A stretch of DNA of 64,000 nt from Bacteriovoracaceae bacterium (lineage in GTDB: Bacteria > Bdellovibrionota > Bacteriovoracia > Bacteriovoracales > Bacteriovoracaceae), in NCBI GenBank assembly GCA_048270185.1, contig JBLWTJ010000001.1, positions 1,696,001 through 1,760,000 on the forward strand, written 5' to 3'. The notes beneath the pieces were generated by a model that was given only the letters and a program-made list of their open reading frames with translations, had not been told where the DNA came from and did not search any database. Below are positions 13,216-24,301 of the stretch, piece by piece. Each line of letters starts with the position of its first letter. Positions within the stretch are counted from its first letter, which is position 1. Both the position numbers and the translations under genes were made by a program.

Positions 13216-13217
13216 GA

Positions 13218-13493
13218 TTACTTATAGAACTCAACGAAGAATTGAACCTCACCTAAAGGCTTTACGTGGTGTAAGACCTCTGGTTCAACAACACCGAATT
13301 TCTTCTCATTTAATTCAATCTCTTCTTGAACGCCCTCTTCAATTTTATAAAGGAGATTCCCCTTTATAATATTAATAAGCCCCCAACTTCCTTTCTTAGT
13401 TTTATGATTTTTAAGCAGGCCATTAGGAATAGTATCCTGATTGAAAATAGGTGTTTTCTTATATGCAGTAACATTGTCTGGTAGAACCTTCAT
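13218..13493 (-). CDS. DUF1971 (YeaR/TehB N-terminal-like cupin) protein
   Basis: YKKTPIF...IP.GLL..H.TK.G.WG...HHV.P...FFVEFY. Confidence 0.85.
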   Translation of the reverse strand: MKVLPDNVTAYKKTPIFNQDTIPNGLLKNHKTKKGSWGLINIIKGNLLYKIEEGVQEEIELNEKKFGVVEPEVLHHVKPLGEVQFFVEFYK

Positions 13494-13622
13494 ATATCCT
13501 CTTGATAAGAAATTAACGACTCTAACAACCTAATATTAGATTGTGATCTTATGATATCAAACAGAAATTTGAATTAGTAGTTAATTTGAGTATATGATCC
13601 TTAAACCTTTAGGGAGGCAAGT

Positions 13623-14471
13623 ATGAAGATTATCTTATTAGTGGTAGCACTTTTACCAATCTTAGCATTTTCAAAAACAACAAATCTTTCACAGAGCAAT
13701 CGACCGTCTCATTATTTCAAAAGAGAAAAAGCGATTTTAAATGTTGGCCTTGCCTACTACGGTGACTACTGGAAAGAGAATGATCTAAAACGAATCACTC
13801 CCATGTTAAAAGAAAGATTTGCCTTAGCAACTAATGAAGTACTTACTCTTAATATCGTTGCTATCGATGTCCTAAGCTATAAAACAAAATTTGACCCTGT
13901 CTTAATGAAGAAGACTTATCCACAAATTAAAGATGAAGCGCGACTGCAACGTGTTTACTACTATGAAACTTTAAAAGGAAATATTCTTTCTGAAGTTTAT
14001 GATGAATTTAAAAAAGCAAAACTTGGAAACTCTTATAAAAGTCTCGATGCACTTCTTGTTGTAACAGGTGCTCAATTTGATGGTCTAGGACTGGCCAACG
14101 GCCGTGTCGCTGTCACAGAGCAGCCACGAGAAATTGCTTGGGGACTACCTGACGGTGGTCGCACAGAAATCGTCAGTGATGAATCAATCGTCGATGAACT
14201 AATCCACGAACTTGGCCATATCATCTTCTTAGGTCACACTTCAACTCAATGTATGAAGCCAGACCTGACTCTTGAAGAGCGCAATCAATGTTGTGAAGCT
14301 TCCCCATCAAAGAACGATGTTATGAGCTATTGTCGCAATCGCAATGACGTCAATCACGGTGTCATCTTCGGTTTTGAATCATGTAATCGCGAAATGATCA
14401 ACGAACTCATCATTCCTGCCATGCTTAAAGGCAAGCGCTGGAACGTCAGCGGACGCCAAACCTGCAAGTAA
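13623..14471 (+). CDS. Secreted zinc metalloprotease (metzincin-like)
   Basis: Signal peptide; HELGHIIFLGH; Met-turn-like DVMSY; GGGAGG RBS. Confidence 0.7.
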   Translation: MKIILLVVALLPILAFSKTTNLSQSNRPSHYFKREKAILNVGLAYYGDYWKENDLKRITPMLKERFALATNEVLTLNIVAIDVLSYKTKFDPVLMKKTYPQIKDEARLQRVYYYETLKGNILSEVYDEFKKAKLGNSYKSLDALLVVTGAQFDGLGLANGRVAVTEQPREIAWGLPDGGRTEIVSDESIVDELIHELGHIIFLGHTSTQCMKPDLTLEERNQCCEASPSKNDVMSYCRNRNDVNHGVIFGFESCNREMINELIIPAMLKGKRWNVSGRQTCK

Positions 14472-14476
14472 GCAAA

Positions 14477-14612
14477 TGAAGAGTTAGCGAAGCGATACTC
14501 TTCAGACAATCTTCGAATTGTGCACGATGGTCGCAGCCACATCCTGCGGCCAAAAAGCAACGCTTTTTGACGCTGAGATGCTTAATTCCAAGAAATAAAA
14601 AAATAAGCGTCA
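14477..14612. repeat. Cluster of GC-rich inverted repeats (REP-like element, structured RNA or terminator)
   Basis: Hairpins at 14477-14504, 14506-14521, 14528-14552 and 14551-14569, plus TGACGCT/AGCGTCA (14568/14606). Confidence 0.55.
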
Positions 14613-14665
14613 GCGCCATTTTTTTATGACAGTTTTTATACGTGAAGTAAATGTCAGCTTATTTT

Positions 14666-14689
14666 AAAAAGAATGGTCGGAGCGAGAGG
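14666..14689. repeat. att core, distal copy (displaced 3' end of tRNA-Pro)
   Basis: AAAAAGAATGGTCGGAGCGAGAGG, identical to 23562-23585. Confidence 0.95.
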
Positions 14690-14779
14690 TTTCTACTACA
14701 AAAGTCGAAACTTACTATCCAACTGACTGAATTAACATTAATAACAAATAGTTATAAAGGTTTCCTAAGTTTTGGTATT

Positions 14780-14829
14780 TCACTTTTATTCATTTTATCT
14801 CACTACTTTTCACTGTATTGGCTGGGATT
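14780..14829. promoter_or_regulatory. att-arm repeats: four 10-bp-phased TCA(C/T)T units followed by GGCTGGGATT
   Basis: TCACT/TCATT at 14780, 14790, 14800, 14810; GGCTGGGATT at 14820 recurs at 23487. Confidence 0.55.
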
Positions 14830-15827
14830 TAGAACTCCCTAGCCCTTGCTTTTATAAGTGCAGGTGTAAAATCATGCTCATCAGTGTATGCCAAAAGTTT
14901 TTTCTTACCGTTCTTCTCACCAATTAATAATCTCTTAGTACCAGCAATACCTAAGCCAAGATTCTCACGAGGCAAGACATAGCCTCTATATATATTAACA
15001 CCATGAGCCTGACTTACAGAGGACTCCGAATGCCAATCAATTTTAAACTTTTTATCAGTAGCACCTCTTAAAGTAGGAAACGAGAGGGCTAAAAAACCAC
15101 AATAAGAGATTTGTTTCAAATCATCACAATTGCATTTCCTAATATCGCTTAAAAATTGTGGTATTACTTCGAAATTTGAAATTTTTGAAATATCTGATTC
15201 GTTCATTCCCTCAAAAAATGATTGTACAAAAGCAGAATATTTCAAACTTTCAAGACTACAATTTGAATAATTCTTTAGATAATCAAAAATTTCATCTTCA
15301 TTTTCCTTTAAAAACTTTTCAAGTACTTCTTGCTTTGGGCCAGAAGGAACAAAATTTAGAATATCAAGTTCTTTGCTACAATACAGCTTATCGTCCCCAC
15401 AAGTTGAACAATCATTTTTCAATAATCTTCGGTCTTCTATATCTACGACTATTGGAGACTTTCTAGTATAAAGTATATTTTGCAAAGCTAAGCTAACTGT
15501 AGTCAATCCAGCAGAAGTAGTGTGGCCATCAGGGAAACTGCTAAAATGTTTTTCAAGCTCTTCCTCGGGGCATAAGCTACTTTTTTTCATTGGCTTAAAA
15601 AGAATATTTGATCCCATTTTATTTACTGAGCTAACAAACACCTTGCCCTTTGCGTCACTTTGCAATATTGGATAAATTGAATACGGAACTAATATAATTA
15701 TAAAATGCTTCAGTTGAGTTGCAAGACTTTCTAGTTTGAATAAAAAATCCACGACATCACTAATATTAGTACGATATAGAACTAAATCTCTCTCAATGAA
15801 TGGGGAAATAAAGACTTCAAAACGCAC
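14829..15827 (-). CDS. Hypothetical protein; putative effector of the upstream ATPase, C-terminus possibly RelE-like RNase
   Basis: 332-aa ORF starting 7 nt after the ATPase stop; C-terminal F.V.PQF..DI...WH...IYR.YV...RL......LL.Y..EH pattern. Confidence 0.6.
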   Translation of the reverse strand: MRFEVFISPFIERDLVLYRTNISDVVDFLFKLESLATQLKHFIIILVPYSIYPILQSDAKGKVFVSSVNKMGSNILFKPMKKSSLCPEEELEKHFSSFPDGHTTSAGLTTVSLALQNILYTRKSPIVVDIEDRRLLKNDCSTCGDDKLYCSKELDILNFVPSGPKQEVLEKFLKENEDEIFDYLKNYSNCSLESLKYSAFVQSFFEGMNESDISKISNFEVIPQFLSDIRKCNCDDLKQISYCGFLALSFPTLRGATDKKFKIDWHSESSVSQAHGVNIYRGYVLPRENLGLGIAGTKRLLIGEKNGKKKLLAYTDEHDFTPALIKARAREF

Positions 15828-15834
15828 AACTAGA

Positions 15835-17325
15835 TTACACTTCTCCAGCTTCTATTTTTTCAAGTCGAAGCTTTGTTAGGTCATCTATTAGCTTATCTCT
15901 TTCATCCATAAAACCATCAGGAGGATTAATTATATATCCCATGTTGTCGTGTTCAATTTTTCGAGCAACAGCTTTTCCATCAATTCTCTCAACCCATAGC
16001 ATTTTTACTTCTTCAAATAGTTGAGGATATTTCACATTAAAATATACTAATTTACTCAATAAGCTTTCACTGTGAGTTTCGATTAGTACAACTTTTCCAA
16101 GTAAAGACATCTGCCCAAAAAAGTCAGCTAACTTAGACTGTGCACTTGGATGAAGGTGGATTTCAGGTTCATCAACAATACAAGTTTCAGACCTGTCAGA
16201 ACTAAGTACTCTGAAAATCACCGGTAAGATTTGACTTAAACCGTATCCCATATTGTTAATAGAAAGCTCTTTACCATCTAAAACTAATATAATTTCAGAA
16301 GTCAAACCTGATGCTATTGATCTGATATCAATCGTTTTTGCAATTTTAAAGAAGTTAACCCAATAATTTAAACTTTCCTCAAGTGTTTGCTGTACGATTT
16401 CATTTTTAGAAAAATCAAAATAACTATCTATTTTGTTATTTTTCTTCCTAATATAATCTTCTAGTGGATTATTAAATCCACCATCTGAATAGATACGATG
16501 AGGCTCGCCTCTAAATGGAGGAATGACAATGATTTTGTCTACTTCTATCTCAGGGATAAAATCAACATCAATACTATTATGAAGCTGAACATAGTCTCCA
16601 AATTTAGGCTCATTAATCTTTCTTAGATTATTAGCGACTACCCCTTTTTTAGTAAAAGCTTTTTTATATTCTTCACTTAAGCAGTCCTCAAGACTTTCTA
16701 TATTTAAATCAAAACTAAGAAGCATAAAATTTTTGAATTTTACATTTCTAACGTCCGAAAACTCAACAACACTACTGAATACACCGCTTGGCCTTACATT
16801 TTTTCCAGCTTTTGCTAATAAGTTAGTGATCATGTAATCAATAAACCTTCCCTCTGAGTAATCAGCAAAATGTACAAACTTTTCTGCTTTTATCTTCCAC
16901 TCACCTGTTGCAGTATTCATTTCTGCTTCAATTGAATGTTCTGGGCTTGCTCTATAAAACATCCTCTTCAGTAAAATATATTCAAAAGTATCTTTACCGT
17001 AATCTTCTCTATGTAGGAAAAATGTTAGCTCTGCATAACCTTGGTCAGATTCAAAAGATAAAAATACTTCCTCATCAGCTATATTGTTTAAAAGTTCCGA
17101 AGGCTTACCTATTTCTAAGTAAGGCCCATTCACTTTTAACATCGGGACTTCTGAGCCTAAATAGTTTTTAGTTTCATTATATGACTGAAGAATTATGAGT
17201 ATTGCTTGATATACAGAGCTCTTACCTGAACTGTTAACCCCTGACAGTAGAGTTAGCTTACTCAATTCTATATATTCAATATCTCCGAAAGACTTAAAGT
17301 TTTTTATTCCTATTTTTCTTAACAT
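15835..17325 (-). CDS. ABC-type ATPase (AAA_15/AAA_21-like) with C-terminal DUF3696-like tail; defence-associated family
   Basis: IKNFKSF, GVNSSGKS, NNMGYGLSQ, IVDEPEIHLHP, IETHSE, C-terminal G.I.NPPDGFMDE. Confidence 0.88.
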   Translation of the reverse strand: MLRKIGIKNFKSFGDIEYIELSKLTLLSGVNSSGKSSVYQAILIILQSYNETKNYLGSEVPMLKVNGPYLEIGKPSELLNNIADEEVFLSFESDQGYAELTFFLHREDYGKDTFEYILLKRMFYRASPEHSIEAEMNTATGEWKIKAEKFVHFADYSEGRFIDYMITNLLAKAGKNVRPSGVFSSVVEFSDVRNVKFKNFMLLSFDLNIESLEDCLSEEYKKAFTKKGVVANNLRKINEPKFGDYVQLHNSIDVDFIPEIEVDKIIVIPPFRGEPHRIYSDGGFNNPLEDYIRKKNNKIDSYFDFSKNEIVQQTLEESLNYWVNFFKIAKTIDIRSIASGLTSEIILVLDGKELSINNMGYGLSQILPVIFRVLSSDRSETCIVDEPEIHLHPSAQSKLADFFGQMSLLGKVVLIETHSESLLSKLVYFNVKYPQLFEEVKMLWVERIDGKAVARKIEHDNMGYIINPPDGFMDERDKLIDDLTKLRLEKIEAGEV

Positions 17326-17340
17326 TACATGTAGCCCAAT

Positions 17341-17369
17341 AAAAAAAGCCCTTTATGATAAAGGGCTTT
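17341..17369 (-). terminator. Intrinsic terminator or palindromic operator between the acidic peptide gene and the ATPase
   Basis: 12-bp perfect inverted repeat AAAGCCCTTTAT-g-ATAAAGGGCTTT ending in T7 on the minus strand. Confidence 0.8.
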
Positions 17370-17406
17370 ATATAATTCTTAATAATTTAGCTTAAATAGT
17401 TTATAG

Positions 17407-17523
17407 TTATTCGTCCACTTCGAGATCAGAAAATTCAGTTTCAGAGAATTCAAGATTTAGCTCACTTAAATCAAAATCAATCTCCATGATGTCAATTTGA
17501 TCGTAAATAGAGTTCACATTCAT
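17407..17523 (-). CDS. 38-aa highly acidic peptide absent from the ORF track (MNVNSIYDQIDIMEIDFDLSELNLEFSETEFSDLEVDE)
   Basis: Translated by hand; GGAGG 5 nt before the ATG; promoter upstream and terminator downstream; 13 D/E and no K/R/H. Confidence 0.75.
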   Translation of the reverse strand: MNVNSIYDQIDIMEIDFDLSELNLEFSETEFSDLEVDE

Positions 17524-17559
17524 ATATTCCTCCAAGAATTATTATATTAACCAATTATC

Positions 17560-17586
17560 TTATCGACATATTGGTAAAAACTTTTA
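17560..17586 (-). promoter_or_regulatory. Sigma28 (FliA)-type promoter
   Basis: TAAA-N15-GTCGATAA, one mismatch to TAAA-N15-GCCGATAA, 36 nt upstream of the peptide ATG. Confidence 0.7.
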
Positions 17587-17747
17587 GCCATAAATATACA
17601 CTTTGTAAATATATCTACGCTATACTTATTATAAATTTTACACCATTATATTCGAATTTCGAAGAAAAACAACTTTGCCTAGAGAAATCTTTATTTAATA
17701 AAACTTAATCACTGTTTTAACTATAAGCATAAGTTATTGATATTTAA

Positions 17748-17975
17748 CTAATCTCGAGTAAATAAGTCAGTAACCTCTACATCAAAGGCTACTGCTAGCC
17801 TATAAACAGACGAGAGGGAAGGACTATGGCCACCACTCTCTATTTTCTGATAATGCCTATAATTAAAGCCATACTGCACCATGTCCTCTTGTGTAAGACC
17901 TCTCGCCCTTCTAAGTTTCTTAATCTTAGAAGCTAATTTATAGATAAATTCTTCATAATTCTCACATGATGCCAT
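17748..17975 (-). CDS. XRE/Cro-C1 family HTH regulator (controller-protein size)
   Basis: IKKLRRARGLTQEDM...YQKIESG..SPSL...RLA.AFDV. Confidence 0.9.
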   Translation of the reverse strand: MASCENYEEFIYKLASKIKKLRRARGLTQEDMVQYGFNYRHYQKIESGGHSPSLSSVYRLAVAFDVEVTDLFTRD

Positions 17976-18008
17976 TCAAATATTATTGAATTCACGTACA
18001 AATTACAC

Positions 18009-18042
18009 CACGTACTATATAGTTCGTGTTCAGTGTTATAAT
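18009..18042 (+). promoter_or_regulatory. Palindromic operator plus extended -10 promoter of the nuclease gene
   Basis: CACGTACTATATAGTTCGTG (18009-18028, one mismatched pair); extra CACGTAC at 17993; TGTTATAAT at 18034-18042. Confidence 0.65.
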
Positions 18043-18062
18043 CACCTTAAGAGGTGAAATTT

Positions 18063-19661
18063 ATGAAATTTAATAACTATCTTTGGGATTTATATAAAAG
18101 CAATTCAAAGTCACTCGAGAATGATAAAGAGCTGCTATTTTCAAATGCGAGCTTTGAAGATGCGAATATCTACTTTACTTGCTTTGAAGCCGACTCTAAC
18201 TATGAGCCATTAAGTAAACCAAAAGAAATTGAGTGCCTAGTAGATTTAGTTCGAGTTATCAAAGATTTTGCAAAAGACGAAGAAGCTACAAGCATAGACG
18301 AAGCTGAAGAAATCTTCCGAGTTATTGCAGATGACAGGATTGACCTCTATTCAGGAGATGACTTCTATCTTCCTGATGAAGATAAAGATAAAAAATATAT
18401 TAGCTATTTGGGCGGTGGAATCGAGCATGAAAGATTCTATCAAACAGACATAATTTCTAATATTGAACATATAACACTAGGGCTACATCAAGCTTATCCG
18501 CAGTTCTTTTTTCCATATCTTTTTGTAAGAGAATTCAATCGACTTAATGAACTGGCCAATTTTTTTGATATCAAACTTCCATCGCTTCCAAAAAAGAGAC
18601 ATAAAAGAGACAGGGCATTCTACTATCTTGAAGTTAATCGAATATTTCAAGATCTAAGGGCCAAGCTAAAATTATCACCTACGGAGTTTAATTTCTTTAT
18701 ATATGACTTTGGATTAAAAAACTTAGAATCACTTAACACACATAGTAAAACCAAAGAAAATTTACCGAATCCTTCTAGGGCATGGCTCATTATTGGATAT
18801 GGTACAGGTATAGATGCTGAATTTTTAAATAATCTAAATGAAGAAACTGTAACACAATGGCAAGGAAAGATAGAAATGCGTGTAGGTGATATTGTACTTA
18901 TGTACCAACGTAATCCAAAAAGTAGCCTCCACTCTATTTGGCGAGTTGTTGAATCTGGCTTTAATGATCCATACGCATTCCACTATGCTCAAACAAAGAT
19001 TGGGTATCCAATTGAAATACCAAAGATTACATTTAAAGAAATAAGAGAAAATGAAATACTAGGCTTAATGCCAATAGTTAAGGCCTCATTTCAGGGTGCG
19101 ACAGGATCAACATTTTCTCTTAGCGAGTATAATGAAGTATTGAAATTAATTAATTCAAAAAATCCAAATATTAGAAACCTACCTCACTTACCAATTGTTG
19201 AAGAACTTAAGAATATAGAGATTTCTAACGAGAGAGATGTAGAAATAAACTTACTTGAGCCACTTCTTGAAAAGCTTGGTTTCGCGAATAATGAATGGAT
19301 CAGGCAATTTCCAGTAAGAATGGGAAGAGGTCAAAGAAACTATCCTGACTACGTTTATGGCGGTGACCCTACTCATGGCGAAGAAACAGCAAAGGCCTTA
19401 ATTGAATGTAAATATCACATAGATAGAGATGCAACTCTTACAGATACTTTTAAGCAAGCAAAATCTTACGCTCTGAGACTTAGAGCAAAGCTTTTTGCAT
19501 TAGCAGACAAGCAAGGTATTTGGATATTCAGATATGTTAATGATGACTTTAATCGAGATGTATTTGAATATATGAGCTGGGTTGAACTTCTTCATCATGA
19601 AAAACTACATGAGTTATCCTTGTTTATCGGAAAAGAGTTTATTGAGGATCATTGTCCTTAG
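18063..19661 (+). CDS. Putative restriction endonuclease: central EVE/PUA-like domain + C-terminal HsdR_N-like PD-(D/E)xK nuclease
   Basis: RAWLII...TQWQG...MRVGDIVLMYQ..P.S (EVE-like); ERDVE..LLEPLL..LG...YPDY...LIECKY...QAKSYA (nuclease). ATG 18063 follows GAGGTG. Confidence 0.75.
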   Translation: MKFNNYLWDLYKSNSKSLENDKELLFSNASFEDANIYFTCFEADSNYEPLSKPKEIECLVDLVRVIKDFAKDEEATSIDEAEEIFRVIADDRIDLYSGDDFYLPDEDKDKKYISYLGGGIEHERFYQTDIISNIEHITLGLHQAYPQFFFPYLFVREFNRLNELANFFDIKLPSLPKKRHKRDRAFYYLEVNRIFQDLRAKLKLSPTEFNFFIYDFGLKNLESLNTHSKTKENLPNPSRAWLIIGYGTGIDAEFLNNLNEETVTQWQGKIEMRVGDIVLMYQRNPKSSLHSIWRVVESGFNDPYAFHYAQTKIGYPIEIPKITFKEIRENEILGLMPIVKASFQGATGSTFSLSEYNEVLKLINSKNPNIRNLPHLPIVEELKNIEISNERDVEINLLEPLLEKLGFANNEWIRQFPVRMGRGQRNYPDYVYGGDPTHGEETAKALIECKYHIDRDATLTDTFKQAKSYALRLRAKLFALADKQGIWIFRYVNDDFNRDVFEYMSWVELLHHEKLHELSLFIGKEFIEDHCP

Positions 19662-20148
19662 TATCTACAAAATGAATGACAATTTCATCATTTTCCTCTT
19701 CTTCACTAATACTATCGAAAGATGAGCCATCACTCTTATCTCCCCATTTCTCAGGTGAGCGTCTACTTAATCGGTATGCTGATGCTTTCCAGTCAGGCTT
19801 CACAAGATATGAAGATACGACAGGATATCCCAACTCATCTAGTATTGGTTCGCCATTATCATCTAGCTTATACGACTTAGGTATTCCAAATGCCGCTTGG
19901 TTGATAACACCTAAGTGCCTTACTTCATCCTCTGCAATAGCAAGCCGTATCGCGTCCGATAATTTCACACATCTAGGGTTTGCATCTTCACTTTTAGCAT
20001 CTCTCAACCAACGATATAAAGTAGACTTACTAACTCCAACCAGTGCCGCGGCTGTTTCGATAAATGCTCCATGCTTTATTGCTGCATATATTTCAGAAAT
20101 CAGTTTATCTGTTAGTTTTGGTGATGAGTTCTTAGGGTATCTAGCCAT
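19639..20148 (-). CDS. Terminase small subunit-like HTH protein
   Basis: KLT...I..AI..G...ETAA..VGVSKSTLYRWL, then DWKASAYRLSRR.PEKWG and an acidic tail ending IVIHFVD; AGGAG RBS. Confidence 0.6.
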   Translation of the reverse strand: MARYPKNSSPKLTDKLISEIYAAIKHGAFIETAAALVGVSKSTLYRWLRDAKSEDANPRCVKLSDAIRLAIAEDEVRHLGVINQAAFGIPKSYKLDDNGEPILDELGYPVVSSYLVKPDWKASAYRLSRRSPEKWGDKSDGSSFDSISEEEENDEIVIHFVDTKDNDPQ

Positions 20149-20261
20149 TTATATTCTCCTATATAGAGATTCTAGCAATGAGCCTATTGCCTATAAATAC
20201 ACCATGTGTTTTAACTATTTACGAATATGTATAAGTATCTATAGAAATTGAGAATTAAATA

Positions 20262-20855
20262 ATGCAAGAAGAATCATCAATCGATCAAATACCTCGAAAA
20301 CTACATAAAGAACTCATGCGAGTACATAACACAGCTCTTCTTCTAAGATACGACAAAGAAATACTATACCTTGAGAATGAATTGGAAATATCAAACCAGC
20401 TTCTAAAGACAATAAATAAGTCTGTTGGTGAAAAGTCTAATGTAAACTTAGGTAAATCAATAGGAGATAGTCTAATTAGAGGGTCATACCTAAACACTAA
20501 CTTTAATAAAGTTCAAATTAAAAAGTCTATAGAACAGGATAAAAAAGAACTAAAATCTGGAATGAAGAACATAAAAGACTATATTGAAAAACTTCACACT
20601 GATAAAGAAGTTGGACTCTTTTATCAAGAAATTAAAAACTCTAAGACTAGTAAGCCAGTTGACTTACTCTGTACAAGAATTATATTCTTACTTTATCAAG
20701 AACTTAAAAGTGCAAACAAGGTCCATAGCTATCTTTTAAAACATACTGCTATACTTGAAGACTTATCCCCTATTCCTTCAATTAGATCCATTTCTAATCG
20801 AGTCAGAAACTATAAGAAAAAGTATCATACATATTTTGAATCAATACACGATTGA
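20262..20855 (+). CDS. Hypothetical protein, possibly a C-terminal helical DNA-binding domain
   Basis: 197-aa ORF inside the island; no family recognised. Confidence 0.6.
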   Translation: MQEESSIDQIPRKLHKELMRVHNTALLLRYDKEILYLENELEISNQLLKTINKSVGEKSNVNLGKSIGDSLIRGSYLNTNFNKVQIKKSIEQDKKELKSGMKNIKDYIEKLHTDKEVGLFYQEIKNSKTSKPVDLLCTRIIFLLYQELKSANKVHSYLLKHTAILEDLSPIPSIRSISNRVRNYKKKYHTYFESIHD

Positions 20856-20910
20856 CAATTTTTACACAAAATACTCATCAAACGTGAATATCCACTCTCC
20901 TTAATAAAAA

Positions 20911-20950
20911 GTTACTGTGAATACAGTTTTACATAATCGTAAACAGTAAC
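20911..20950. promoter_or_regulatory. Nested inverted repeats upstream of the xis-rep-xis-int operon
   Basis: GTTACTGT(20911)...ACAGTAAC(20943); inner ACTGT-gaat-ACAGT. Confidence 0.45.
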
Positions 20951-20974
20951 AACTATAAACAGGGAGAATAATCA

Positions 20975-21151
20975 GTGAAATCAAATGACGACTATCTAAT
21001 GACCACCAAAGAGCTTGCCAAGAAGCTAAGCGTAAAGGTTTCCTATATTAGATATCTGAAGATGAATAATCGAATTCCTTATATCAAAATTGGTAAACTG
21101 ATACGTTACTCAAGCAAAGAAATAGCCGTATGGCTCAATAACCAAAACTAG
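20975..21151 (+). CDS. 58-aa excisionase/AlpA-like HTH_17 protein, absent from the ORF track
   Basis: GTG start after GGGAG; MKSNDDYLMTTKELAKKLSVKVSYIRYLKMNNRIPYIKIGKLIRYSSKEIAVWLNNQN. Confidence 0.85.
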   Translation: MKSNDDYLMTTKELAKKLSVKVSYIRYLKMNNRIPYIKIGKLIRYSSKEIAVWLNNQN

Positions 21152-21207
21152 AAACTAAACAACATGCAAAAAAGAACAATGCTCGAATTTCGAGTAAAGG
21201 AGTCACT

Positions 21208-22155
21208 ATGTCAATTTCTCTAAAAAATATAAGAGAAAACAAAAAACAATCTGAAGATACAGTACTTCCCTTATTAAGTGGGAAAGTAGAATCAATTTGT
21301 ATAAATCCAAGTGAAATTAATACAGGAATAGATAGAATAGAAGGAAACCTAACCCATCTCAGTATAGCCGACATTAGAAAGCTTAGAGAAGTAGACAAGT
21401 GCCCTGTAGAGAAGCATATCAAAGGCCTAGGCTACATACGTTCGTTTAAATTAAAGTTAATCACACTTAATCTCTGCTATATGAAACAGACACATATATT
21501 GCCATATAAGTTTTACTTTAATCTTAATCACTCAAATGACATAAATATACAGTTACAAGATTTAATCAACCACTTCAAAACAGCCCTAGATAAATCAAGA
21601 ATTGTTAGAGTCGACTTGAATGCTGACTTTAAGTCGTCAATTCAAAACATGTTAATTAACCTACAGGTGAAAAATAAACAGATGTCAAAAGAATATAGGT
21701 GCACGCATAACAATATTGAAGGTAAATCTTGGGGAAAAGATGATGAAATCATAAGAATATATACATATGAAAATAATGAAGATGAGCCTATTACTCGTCT
21801 TGAAGTTCAAATCAGGAATAAGAAGCTCCCAAGAGATAGAAGTTTTTCAAATATACTTAAGTGGTTAAAGACTAATACTTTCTTTGAATCCATACAATTT
21901 TGGAACATCAATGGAATCAACAGTACTCCATTTAAAAAAATTAAACAGCTTGATTTTTATAGGTACTACGTAAAGTTTTTTAATCTTATAAATCTACAAA
22001 CACTTGGTTTTACAGAAGCAAGAAGTAGGTCAAAAGAACCAAAGAACTTCATGAGGAGTCTTCGGAGACACTTAAAAATAGAAAAATCTGACATCTCATT
22101 AATGAAAATATTTCGCCATCAGGTGACAAGTCAGCTGGGATCAAAGTATGAATAA
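21208..22155 (+). CDS. Rep_trans-like rolling-circle replication initiator/relaxase
   Basis: RVDLNAD, IRIY (candidate catalytic Tyr) and RLEVQIR occur in the order seen in pT181 RepC/MOBT proteins; AAGGAG RBS. Confidence 0.65.
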   Translation: MSISLKNIRENKKQSEDTVLPLLSGKVESICINPSEINTGIDRIEGNLTHLSIADIRKLREVDKCPVEKHIKGLGYIRSFKLKLITLNLCYMKQTHILPYKFYFNLNHSNDINIQLQDLINHFKTALDKSRIVRVDLNADFKSSIQNMLINLQVKNKQMSKEYRCTHNNIEGKSWGKDDEIIRIYTYENNEDEPITRLEVQIRNKKLPRDRSFSNILKWLKTNTFFESIQFWNINGINSTPFKKIKQLDFYRYYVKFFNLINLQTLGFTEARSRSKEPKNFMRSLRRHLKIEKSDISLMKIFRHQVTSQLGSKYE

Positions 22156-22336
22156 TCAGCTCTTTAACAAACGAATATGGAAAATAAAAGATGTAGCTGA
22201 GTATCTACAATGTTCAGTAGGAACTATCTACAACAAGACGAGTAAAGGTGAAATACCATTCTTTAAGAAAGGAAAATCTTTATACTTTTCCCCAGAAGAA
22301 ATTGAAAACTGGGTACAGGAGGGAAACCTTGAATAA
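22148..22336 (+). CDS. Excisionase-like HTH_17 protein
   Basis: WKIKDVAEYLQCSVGTIYN....EIPF.K.G..LYF..EEI..W. Confidence 0.9.
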   Translation: MNNQLFNKRIWKIKDVAEYLQCSVGTIYNKTSKGEIPFFKKGKSLYFSPEEIENWVQEGNLE

Positions 22337-23474
22337 GTATAAAAAACTCAAACATCATACTGGAATTAGAAAAGTATTATCTAGCGGTAACTATGAAGCT
22401 TCAAAAAAGATTAAAGGAAAGACTTACTCTCAAACCTTTAAGACTATAAGACAAGCTCAGCACTGGAGAAACACTTATAACCCTTTCTTAAGCTTTACAC
22501 CTGAGACTAACGGCATGAAGTTCAAGGAGCTATGGGAAAAATATGAGGAAGCCTACTTCCCAGAAATTGAAAAATCATCGCAAGGAATCAAGAAACAAAG
22601 GATTAAAGTTTTCAAACACCATTTAGATGATATCTCTGTATATGAAGTAACTCCTGAGTATATAGATCATATAGTTAAGCTAGAGAAAAAACTTGCTATC
22701 AGTAACCCAAATAGTAAAAGGTGTAACTTCAAAAGTAGTCTAGATGAAGTTAAGGCTGCATTTAACTGGTATCGTGAAAACTATGACTATCAATTCCATA
22801 GTCCAGTATTAAAAAGGCATTACACTATTGGAATTATCAGAAAAACTGAGAAAAGAGAGAGAATCTTAACTAAGGATCAAGTTGTTAGATTCTTTAAAGC
22901 GATAGACAATCCTTTATTTCAAGATTTTGCAATTATTCAATTCTTTTGTGCTTCGCGATTTGGAGAAGTAGCAGGAATACAAATAAAAAACATAGACTTT
23001 GAAACAGATTCTCTATTAATAAAGGAAGTTGTAGTTGAAGATCAAAGTAAAAAGTTTCTAGAACTAAAACCATACCCTAAAAATGGGCACGCTAGAGTTG
23101 TAGCAATTACTTCAGCTATTTTCAAAGCTGCTATTCAGAGAAGAATGGCTGATAGAGTAAAAGGATCAAACTACTTAATACATAGAAATGGCAATCCCAT
23201 GAGCTATCGTTCAGTTCAATTCCAATATAACAAAGCTTTAAAAAAGGCTGGATTACACCCAGAGTTTAGCTCTACACATATCTTAAGATATTCAATGGCT
23301 TCAGAGTCAAGACGTATAATGGGCTCTCTAGATGCTGCACAGGCTATTACTGGCCACAAGTCGATTAAGATGATTGAACACTATGCAAGAGTACCAACTA
23401 TGCTTCAAGGTGAGACTATTTCTAAAGTGAGTTTTGAAATTGAAAATACTTGGAAAAGCATACAAAAGCCTAAT
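22329..23474 (+). CDS. int: Tyrosine recombinase/integrase
   Basis: R (ASRFGE), K (PKNG), HILR, GHKS, HY catalytic set; likely TTG start at 22329 overlapping the xis stop; end placed at the TAA just after ...QKP/N (track gives 23477). Confidence 0.93.
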
Positions 23475-23561
23475 TAAGCTGGGAAAGGCTGGGATTATAA
23501 AATAAATATCAAAGGAGAATTTAGTAAACTATTAAAAACACTGAAGAAATTAAAGTTTATA

Positions 23562-23585
23562 AAAAAGAATGGTCGGAGCGAGAGG
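23562..23585. repeat. att core, tRNA-proximal copy
   Basis: Identical to 14666-14689; overlaps the tRNA 3' end. Confidence 0.95.
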
Positions 23586-23646
23586 ATTTGAACCTCCGAC
23601 CCCTTGCTCCCAAAGCAAGTGCGCTACCAAACTGCGCTACGCTCCG
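23570..23646 (-). tRNA. tRNA-Pro (anticodon TGG)
   Basis: CGGAGCG...CGCTCCG-ACCA acceptor stem; anticodon arm CTTGC-TTTGGGA-GCAAG; GGTTCAAATCC T-arm; 77 nt. Confidence 0.98.
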
Positions 23647-23666
23647 ATTCAGATTTTGGTAGGGTA

Positions 23667-23695
23667 TTTATAAGTGATCTAAAGCTTTTTGGCAA
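23667..23695 (-). promoter_or_regulatory. Sigma70-type promoter for tRNA-Pro
   Basis: TTGCCA-N17-TATAAA. Confidence 0.55.
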
Positions 23696-23719
23696 CCTAG
23701 AATTTCAAAGATATGAAAC

Positions 23720-24301
23720 TTATTTAAGCTCACTAAAAAACTTGATGGCACTGGCCACGGCCTTAGCACGGTGTGAATTCTCATTTTTCCACTCTTCCAG
23801 CTGCGCTACAGTGGTATCAGCAAAGGCTTTCGGGCAAAACACAGGGTCATATCCAAAGCCACCATCACCTTCATAACTATCTGAAATCTCACCTTCCATA
23901 CGTCCCTCAAAAAAATATATTTCCTCAGGACTTAAGTAGAAACAAAGGACACAAGTAAAATAAGCGTCGCGATTATTCTCTCCTTCAAGCTTTTTTAGAA
24001 GAAGTTCAGCGCGCTGACGATCAGTTAGGTTCTCGCCACCAAAGCGGGCCGAGTAAATACCTAACTCATCAGGAAGAACCTCAACATTTAAGCCAGAGTC
24101 GTCGGCAACAACCGGAGTTTTAAACTCTTCATAATAGGCTTGTGCTTTTTTTAGAGCGTTTTCTTGGTAGGTATTCCCATCTTCAACGACTTCAAGTTTC
24201 TTGGATGCGGCCTTGATTGTAATATTCGTATCCTTAAAAAGAATTGCGAACTCTTCGGCCTTGTGAGCATTTCCAGTTGCTAGAATAAAGTCGTGTTTCA
24301 T
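23720..24301 (-). CDS. rdgB: Non-canonical purine NTP pyrophosphatase (RdgB/HAM1)
   Basis: ATGNAHK, ADDSGL, GFGYDPVF, SHR; directly after rph. Confidence 0.95.
   Translation of the reverse strand: MKHDFILATGNAHKAEEFAILFKDTNITIKAASKKLEVVEDGNTYQENALKKAQAYYEEFKTPVVADDSGLNVEVLPDELGIYSARFGGENLTDRQRAELLLKKLEGENNRDAYFTCVLCFYLSPEEIYFFEGRMEGEISDSYEGDGGFGYDPVFCPKAFADTTVAQLEEWKNENSHRAKAVASAIKFFSELK

Follow-up and report, generated by a model that had tools for sequence, protein, structure and literature searches.

A possible phage satellite with a predicted Rep_trans-superfamily initiator and a small-terminase homologue at tRNA-Pro in a Bacteriovoracaceae bacterium

How does a small chromosomal island replicate and move if it carries its own integrase, a putative replication initiator and a relative of the small subunit of phage terminase (TerS)? 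The question is raised by a Bacteriovoracaceae bacterium (GCA_048270185.1), in which such an island occupies positions 14666-23588 of a 64,000-nt stretch of contig JBLWTJ010000001.1 (positions 1,696,001 to 1,760,000; here called the window). A sequence-only reading of the window had listed att repeats, int, two xis-like genes, a rep-like gene and a terS-like gene, all of which are present in the sequence, and had proposed a hybrid satellite. Here, we read the island, with confidence evenly balanced, as an integrative, helper-dependent phage satellite that would combine a rolling-circle replicon with packaging redirection and would stand closest to the marine elements known as VEIMEs and PICMIs.

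A discrete insertion at tRNA-Pro

The island measures 8,923 bp between the outer ends of its repeats, matching the ~8.9 kb estimated beforehand. It is bounded by a 27-nt direct repeat (14666-14692 and 23562-23588; 26 of 27 positions identical, 8896 nt apart), whose exact 24-nt core is found twice in the window and was produced by none of 100 shuffles. The right copy (attR) lies inside the 3′ end of an intact tRNA-Pro(UGG) gene, the integration target (23570-23646, minus strand; ARAGORN; Rfam tRNA, 68.2 bits), and spans the last 16-19 nt of the tRNA and 8 nt beyond it; the left copy (attL; repeat D7) is a displaced copy of the tRNA-Pro 3′ end with the 8 nt downstream. ARAGORN found no other tRNA in the window. 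The GC content of the island is 0.327, against 0.364-0.370 in its flanks and 0.363 in the window. Coding sequence makes up 90% of the island, with 11 open reading frames (ORFs) of at least 42 aa between the repeats, which were scanned against Pfam, PHROGs, PADLOC and NCBIfam. Four of the 11 (the 332-aa, 197-aa and 42-aa ORFs and Rep) matched no family in any of these libraries; as the sequence-only reading had stated, capsid, portal, tail and conjugation genes are missing from the list, and neither these families nor the large terminase subunit (TerL) were matched by Pfam or PHROGs. Rfam returned only the tRNA and a sub-threshold HTH-XRE motif for the region, and promoter-like sites were not enriched (40 observed versus 36.9 expected). 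The source genome (3.35 Mb) is 95.9% complete, and gene negatives in it are given as not found rather than absent.

Comparison with relatives at tRNA-Pro gave an island-free site both in genomes of the same genus and in metagenome contigs. In G011, G004 and G008, three genomes of the same genus, only 12-28 nt separate the tRNA-Pro region from the Lrp-like gene that in the window lies to the left of the island, so those species have neither the island nor the adjacent 1.45 kb (13216-14665); a search for the Rep gene in eight other genomes of the genus found none. Three marine metagenome DNA runs were used as contigs only (X1 and X2, of equal size and figures, are probably one data set; X3 is from another study). 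Contigs from all three cover both flanks (14300-14683 and 23562-24000); their long pieces differ at 0-1 positions, the summed depth is 8-38, and the flanks are ~99-100% identical with the interior lacking. Coverage is zero at 14948-16567 and 18836-23371, bar a 33-nt piece (21142-21174) in X3 that continues into unlike sequence at both ends; 16568-18835 is covered by scattered low-depth pieces in X1/X2 only, the listed ones (18051-18198 and 18606-18751) being ~91% alike. In X3, a single 91-nt contig runs from 14664 straight into 23560, leaving out 8895 nt; its depth equals that of the flanks, and its left side is just 24 nt long, a case in which the usual caution for short sides applies. An unoccupied attB therefore exists in a near-identical natural population, with breakpoints at the repeat (excision in the source strain is not implied), and the island at the 3′ end of tRNA-Pro(UGG) is a discrete insertion with recent mobility.

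This exact presence/absence polymorphism at the repeat speaks against a decayed prophage remnant whose integrase, regulators and TerS were kept by chance. Phage-derived families are indeed present (TerS, a repressor and phrog_37753), as expected of a remnant; on the other side, the att sites, integrase and Rep are intact, the densely coding sequence shows no pseudogene debris, no TerL, portal or capsid remains were found in the island, and the compact layout with clean att boundaries recurs in many genomes. We regard such decay as very improbable.

The flanks of the island were found in seawater and plastic-surface metagenomes, a habitat consistent with a marine predatory lineage, without proving one; the description of the host as a probable predatory bacterium stands at phylum level only (Bdellovibrionota). 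Beside the same tRNA, the 1.45-kb segment missing from the three same-genus genomes holds a 91-aa ORF (13218-13493, minus strand) and a 282-aa ORF for a secreted M12-like peptidase (13623-14471; Reprolysin_5 below cut-off), with a GC content of up to 0.45 at 14000-14499. Since its right end is present in the island-free metagenome contigs (14300-14683), the segment is a species-level difference next to the tRNA, and possibly the remains of an older insertion.

A predicted rolling-circle initiator and a small-terminase homologue

Rep (315 aa; 21208-22155, plus strand), blank in all four family libraries, was equally isolated in direct searches: a word-index homologue search returned only Rep itself, a single-sequence PDB search gave 0 matches, and tblastn against annotated phages gave none. 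HMMER over 1.84 billion representatives recovered 36 proteins at E ≤1e-3 (query included), three of them at E ≤1e-30. The 36 sequences were aligned (A1), as were the closest three Reps (A4) and a wider clade (A5). D136, D140, K157, G176, Y185, R197 and E199 are invariant in A1, and D42 and R134 are nearly so. The A1 profile matched RepDE (4cwe, 1.9e-4; 4cwc, 3.6e-4) across the motifs, pairing tRlDlniDf with TRLDLAFDF, iviYdK with IRIYNK, and ltRiElrL with LWRVEIEL, i.e., RxD..D, IY(D/N)K, and RxE. For staphylococcal Rep proteins, Carr et al. (PMC4797284) assign the role of nucleophile to Y191 and metal binding to E214, D142 and D46, and report strict conservation of R140, D142, A144, D146, R212 and E214. 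Counted along the alignment, Y185, R134, D136, D140, R197 and E199 of the island Rep fall on RepD Y191, R140, D142, D146, R212 and E214; RepD R189 is also among the aligned residues, and the equivalence of D42 with RepD D46 comes from aligned ranges only. We propose Tyr185 as the catalytic residue and D42, D136 and E199 as the metal ligands.

AlphaFold2 supplied with A1 gave a Rep model with pLDDT 85.4 and pTM 0.83; a single-sequence fold (pLDDT 35.8) was discarded. The top six of 500 Foldseek matches were Rep_trans initiators (chains of 4cwc, 4cwe and 4cij; 7e-8 to 2e-6), followed by TATA-binding proteins (TBPs). Against three solved Rep_trans structures, VIA-align gave Z scores of 10.9, 10.8 and 8.0 over 207-234 residues (226 residues aligned in the best match, root-mean-square deviation 5.6), with the next fold at 6.3. 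The structural match to plasmid RepDE covers residues 35-311 and includes the C-terminal helical part, whose helices at 250-310 could bind DNA, as in plasmid RepD. The Pfam Rep_trans model PF02486 (cut-off, 29.6 bits) matched neither the window Rep nor any of the 36 family representatives (0/36), and two further relatives also scored below the cut-off (L044, 24.8 bits, 1.8e-5; L053, 20.6 bits). Atlas separately leads Rep to Rep_trans-named clusters, which we treat as a lead only. At the superfamily level, the model shows the crescent TBP-like fold and the alignment shows the active-site pattern. Rep is thus predicted to represent a new, Pfam-blind family within the Rep_trans superfamily and not a member of PF02486; the original Rep_trans label keeps its superfamily sense, from profile, fold and motifs, and loses its Pfam sense.

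A protein of this superfamily might instead serve as a MOBT-type relaxase acting at an oriT, within an integrative mobilisable element that borrows its mating pore from a co-resident conjugative element. Kinship between MOBT relaxases and Rep_trans initiators is on record (PMC11389934, in the part available), and Int, Xis and a Rep_trans-type protein together form the layout of streptococcal elements of this kind (PMC7563843, likewise in part). A MOBT-type helix-turn-helix (HTH) was sought in Rep: there was no HTH match in Pfam and no folded domain before residue 37, where the strands begin (residues 1-21, pLDDT <50; residues 21-30, average 65). In the model, no HTH domain is seen ahead of the catalytic domain, and the match to plasmid RepDE extends into the C-terminal helices. 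No coupling protein or other transfer gene was seen among the island ORFs, no VirB4-type ATPase was found in the genome (in a search whose control was positive in only 1 of 14 genomes), and a TerS does not fit such an element. Mobilisation of this sort appears improbable.

The TerS gene (169 aa; 19639-20148, minus strand) lies divergent from the row of 197-aa, xis-like, rep, xis-like and integrase genes. Its product matched phrog_4102 ("terminase small subunit"; 5.7e-19, residues 11-86) and, weakly, three other TerS phrogs; a PDB sequence search gave only matches with E about 1, and the TerS profile gave only HTH-level TetR matches. Among annotated phages, tblastn identified gp1 of HRTV-28, an annotated TerS that overlaps the start of the TerL gene (gp2). 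Two close relatives (55% and 43% identity) were used to scan two collections. Viral contigs yielded four confirmed loci, all with a 139-143-aa relative (30-33% identical over residues ~10-140) placed directly upstream of a Terminase_6N/6C protein; in the three with downstream genes scanned, portal and MuF follow and ParB_N stands in front. Species-representative genomes yielded 14 TerS loci, at six of which the next gene is Terminase_6N (L062-L066 and L069), and L071, outside the Pfam-scanned loci, has the same layout. TerS is single copy in the source genome, where no Terminase_6N gene was found, so it is not a leftover or part of a resident prophage packaging module. From these matches, the product of 19639-20148 is a true small-terminase homologue along most of its length. 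The terS-like call is accordingly upgraded to a genuine homologue by its phrog_4102 match and by the slot of its relatives upstream of TerL; the helper-packaging role that came with the call keeps its conditional standing.

Three loci met in these scans deserve record. In an Oligoflexia metagenome-assembled genome (L062:4256-11882), a tyrosine integrase, an HTH_17 protein and a DUF927 primase-like protein are encoded divergently from TerS (44% identical to the window TerS) and Terminase_6N, followed by host-like genes, giving a compact row in a small island that encodes both subunits of the terminase; no capsid gene was seen close to it. A gammaproteobacterial contig (L067:2062-7872) carries a DUF3987 primase, a TerS-like protein of the window's family and an MmeI-type restriction-modification gene, and by its gene content appears to be a primase-type satellite-like island. 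One viral contig (L060:13916-15454) encodes, downstream of TerS, TerL and portal, a fusion of a MuF head protein with an ADP-ribosyltransferase exoenzyme domain.

Related islands, rival readings and known satellites

Of 401 genomes drawn from across the phylum, 28 contain Rep in a six-frame search with A1, at 31 places in all; up to 20 kb was fetched around 20 of these places (~337 kb in total). A tRNA gene is present at 16 of the 20 loci (for Asp, Met, Leu, Pro, Gln, Cys or Arg). At eight loci the island, 2.8-9.9 kb long, is delimited by exact repeats (21-47 nt) that overlap the end of the tRNA. Tyrosine integrases occur at 14 loci and large serine recombinases at six (both at one locus, neither at another), and small HTH_17/MerR-type proteins stand beside Rep at no fewer than nine (at least 9). 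Pfam was run on 230 ORFs (87 in bounded stretches and 143 within 5 kb of Rep elsewhere) and gave 0 matches to TerL, portal, capsid or tail families; the cargo includes methylases and resolvases as well as a reverse transcriptase, M78/Xre pairs and parts of toxin-antitoxin systems. The 93 of these 230 ORFs that had drawn no informative Pfam match were also scanned with PHROGs. TerS was recognised at four of the 20 loci: L043 (Terminase_2, 4e-8; phrog_51), L052 (Terminase_2, 1.4e-23), L040 (phrog_309, 7.9e-11) and L047 (phrog_309, 1.2e-25; also phrog_4102), the last placed directly behind a gene closely related to the HTH_3 gene of the window (5.6e-22). A 120-aa gene at L048 is a fifth candidate, by the TerS profile only (3.8e-4). 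Together with the window, five of 21 loci carry TerS, from three families (Terminase_2/phrog_51, phrog_309 and phrog_4102). By our own arithmetic, the 36 Terminase_2 places in the 401 genomes would lead one to expect ~0.01 in the ~337 kb around Rep, where two occur. The satellite reading gains weight because islands that share this Rep family and lack structural genes repeatedly carry TerS, drawn from three families.

Two further cargo genes were noted at these loci. An RVT_1 reverse transcriptase (L037:368-1732) lies within 2.3 kb of Rep, on the same stretch as a serine recombinase by tRNA-Asp, and may be retron- or DRT-type defence cargo. A 1520-aa protein without a Pfam or PHROG match (L048:6839-11401) is the main cargo of an 8.5-kb Rep-family island at tRNA-Met.

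The hybrid satellite first proposed draws partial support from its gene calls, the discrete insertion and the empty site, and its way of life (excision, rolling-circle copying, packaging and a helper phage) is what we infer from the genes alone. Several points weigh against it. In classical Rep_trans replication the product is a single-stranded monomer circle, whereas headful terminases work on double-stranded concatemers. No outstanding hairpin marks an origin near rep, the most stable windows of the region being the tRNA and a terminator. Pfam terminase models scored below cut-off with TerS (Sf6_terminase, 0.036), and its PHROG match is confined to residues 11-86. No TerS was recognised at 16 of the 21 Rep-family loci, so it is not a core gene of the Rep family, and the related genomes are kin, with the result that the counts overstate independence. 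Packaged copies, which the sequence-only reading would have in viromes, were not found in the viral collection with the A4 or A5 Rep patterns: the A4 scan gave no Rep relative in viral contigs or metagenome contigs, and the A5 scan gave none in viral contigs and three metagenome loci, none with a terminal repeat, tRNA or TerS. Rep, finally, has Tyr187 at the position of RepD K193, where most relatives have K or R, and K193 is critical for religation in RepD (PMC4797284, accessible part).

Part of this evidence would also suit an integrative replicative element or defence island that makes no use of phage particles, excising and replicating as a rolling-circle plasmid and persisting or spreading by routes such as transformation, vesicles or generalised transduction, with TerS as a DNA-binding regulator or an anti-phage packaging decoy. 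The int/xis/Rep core at the 16 loci without TerS, the defence-like cargo, the concentration of the strongest TerS signal in the N-terminal HTH part, and the viral collection empty of Rep relatives all point that way. However, the TerS relatives align over residues ~10-140, beyond the HTH; three unrelated TerS families, each acquired by Rep-family islands, are hard to explain as a regulator; and a decoy TerS would still be the phage interference typical of satellites. We judge this particle-free alternative credible and yet unlikely, and continue with the helper-dependent satellite as the preferred reading.

Among characterised satellites, SaPI-type PICIs bring together an integrase with a repressor and Xis, a replicon that works autonomously, a TerS by which packaging of the helper is redirected, and accessory cargo; the island has known or predicted counterparts of these. 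The initiator of PICI replication is a primase/helicase (Pri-Rep), and capsid-size genes are common in PICIs, whereas no primase/helicase or capsid-size family was matched among the 11 island ORFs. A cf-PICI has its own capsid and portal; P4 has psu, sid, delta and the alpha primase; a PLE has a large serine recombinase and PLE replication genes. None of these hallmark families was matched among the island ORFs by Pfam or PHROGs, and the family scans thus confirm that the standard gene sets of PICI and cf-PICI, as of P4 and PLE, are not fitted.

VEIMEs are closest in function. According to the portions available of PMC9618062 (Eppley et al. 2022), which also summarises general satellite features, these small marine elements have a tyrosine and/or serine recombinase in >80% of cases; AlpA/excisionase, replication and defence genes are common, many have small-terminase homologues (Dataset S5), and there are no major capsid genes. 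The gene repertoire of the island agrees. VEIMEs are defined by their presence in virions, as concatemers, whereas the island is known here from its genes; and for replication VEIMEs are listed with primase/helicases, RepA, COG5534, COG5527 or protein O, in contrast to the predicted Rep_trans-superfamily protein of the island. "Rep_trans", "PF02486" and "Bdellovibrio" have 0 occurrences in seven VEIME supplementary tables, and "rolling" has 0 in Dataset S5 (PMC9618062, as far as available); a Pfam-blind Rep like that of the island would have gone unannotated in such tables. The PICMIs of Vibrionaceae, in the available part of PMC10803314, share with the island a minimal marine format with int, an AlpA-type gene, their own replication gene and defence cargo, and no capsid-remodelling genes. 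Their helper phages are virulent, and the PICMI model calls for a primase with DUF3987/DUF5906 and for insertion beside fis. The island differs in having int and HTH_17 genes but no DUF3987/DUF5906, a tRNA-Pro site, a predicted nickase of Rep_trans type and a TerS; the word "terminase" is absent from the PICMI main text, in the portion available (PMC10803314).

Outside the satellites, the pT181-family RepC/RepD and RepSTK1 share with Rep the crescent TBP-like catalytic fold, the Tyr nucleophile, RxD..D, RxE and the N-terminal Asp (PMC4797284, accessible part). The island Rep is only ~12-14% identical to them, fails the Pfam model, has Tyr at the K193 equivalent, and is encoded in the chromosome, together with an integrase, of a bacterium from a Gram-negative phylum. 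Streptococcal integrative mobilisable elements are likewise small and pair a tyrosine integrase with a Rep_trans/MobT-related nickase (PMC7563843, in part), but they move by conjugative mobilisation and their relaxase has an added HTH (PMC11389934, in part), whereas in the island there is TerS, no extra HTH is seen in Rep, and no transfer genes were matched. In the partly available literature on phage satellites with a Rep_trans or rolling-circle replicon, or in Bdellovibrio, no description of this type of element was found, nor any of satellites in Bdellovibrionota.

Cargo genes, proposed cycle and significance

From the left end, the island opens with two minus-strand genes. The 496-aa product of 15835-17325 is an ABC/OLD-class, NsnB-like ATPase (Pfam AAA_15, 5.7e-28; AAA_21, 5.5e-20; DUF3696, 2.5e-5), matched in PADLOC by NsnB (7e-56) and then by HEC-03B and AriA. 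Directly downstream of it, 14829-15827 encodes the 332-aa protein, a candidate effector or partner in a two-gene defence module, for which Atlas gave weak leads (YoeB-toxin-named clusters at 0.92, low recognition). Of the Menshen system (NsnABC), which we take to consist of NsnA, NsnB and NsnC together, only NsnB was matched; the 332-aa neighbour and the other ORFs had no PADLOC match, and the three genes were not found together.

The next unit, also on the minus strand, encodes a 75-aa Xre/CI-type HTH_3 regulator (17748-17975; HTH_3, 6.1e-9; phrog_3 "transcriptional repressor", 1.1e-11), a candidate master repressor. It is followed by a terminator-like hairpin (17345-17369, minus strand; an 11-bp stem and a T run), which ranks second in stability among the 50-nt windows of the region (-11.2 kcal/mol). 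The very acidic 42-aa ORF (17407-17535, minus strand; 15 D/E), placed between this strong hairpin and the HTH_3 gene, could be a small acidic regulator, a DNA mimic, or no gene.

On the plus strand, 18054-19661 encodes a 535-aa protein of a phage-borne family (phrog_37753, 3.7e-88, residues 4-514), with no PADLOC match and 0 PDB sequence matches. Its leads to EVE (0.0041) and HSDR_N (0.025), both below the Pfam cut-off, make a modification-sensing nuclease possible. Pieces of this gene (18051-18751, ~91% identity, low depth) occur in metagenome contigs without the rest of the island, so the gene circulates in other contexts.

The plus-strand row that contains rep begins with the 197-aa gene (20262-20855), for which no relative was found in the related Rep-family islands. 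A 58-aa HTH_17 excisionase/AlpA-like gene lies upstream of rep (20975-21151, plus strand; HTH_17, 6.3e-9; TIGR01764 "excise", 6.4e-8), and a 62-aa HTH_17 excisionase-like gene overlaps the start of the integrase gene (22148-22336, plus strand; HTH_17, 9.4e-14; "excise", 8e-9; MAD1-like, 1.4e-13, below cut-off). Both xis-like calls hold, being above the Pfam HTH_17 cut-off and matched by the NCBIfam "excise" domain. The int call holds as well: the longest ORF (22248-23477, 409 aa, from GTG 22248) matches Phage_integrase (8.5e-17) and phrog_1 (1.2e-39), although the tyrosine integrase gene more probably starts at TTG 22329, behind AGGAGG, where it spans 22329-23477 (plus strand) and overlaps the xis-like gene by 8 nt. 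Its nearest relative is that of L040 (1.3e-74).

In the cycle that we propose, the Xre-type protein would keep the element silent until infection by a helper phage lifted repression. Int and an HTH_17 protein would then excise the circle, Rep would nick the origin via Tyr185 and a metal held by D42, D136 and E199, and a host helicase and polymerase would copy the circle by the rolling-circle mode. The island TerS would bind island DNA and recruit the large terminase of the helper, probably of the Terminase_6 type, as in phages with related TerS genes, and island DNA would be packed into helper capsids. The particle would carry the DNA to a new cell, where Int would insert it at tRNA-Pro. The ATPase pair and the 535-aa protein may protect the host against other phages.

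More broadly, and with somewhat less than even confidence, we suggest that Bdellovibrionota, including marine predatory lineages, host a phylum-wide satellite family that is built on the new Rep_trans-superfamily initiator and a tyrosine or serine integrase, and swaps TerS families to match its helpers. These would be the first satellites reported for the phylum and the first with such a replication module. If true, a rolling-circle nickase of the Rep_trans superfamily joins the replicons of satellites, the known cases of which are primase-helicases or RepA-type initiators, and satellites are placed in a phylum whose phages and mobile elements are little studied. The A1 Rep profile is a usable marker that finds islands blank to Pfam, PHROGs, NCBIfam and PADLOC, and would make possible a systematic census as well as searches through long-read viromes. 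The NsnB-like ATPase with its 332-aa partner and the 535-aa phrog_37753 protein are candidate anti-phage genes. The repeated, independent pairing of Rep with three TerS families would offer a natural experiment on how satellites are matched to the packaging machinery of their helpers.

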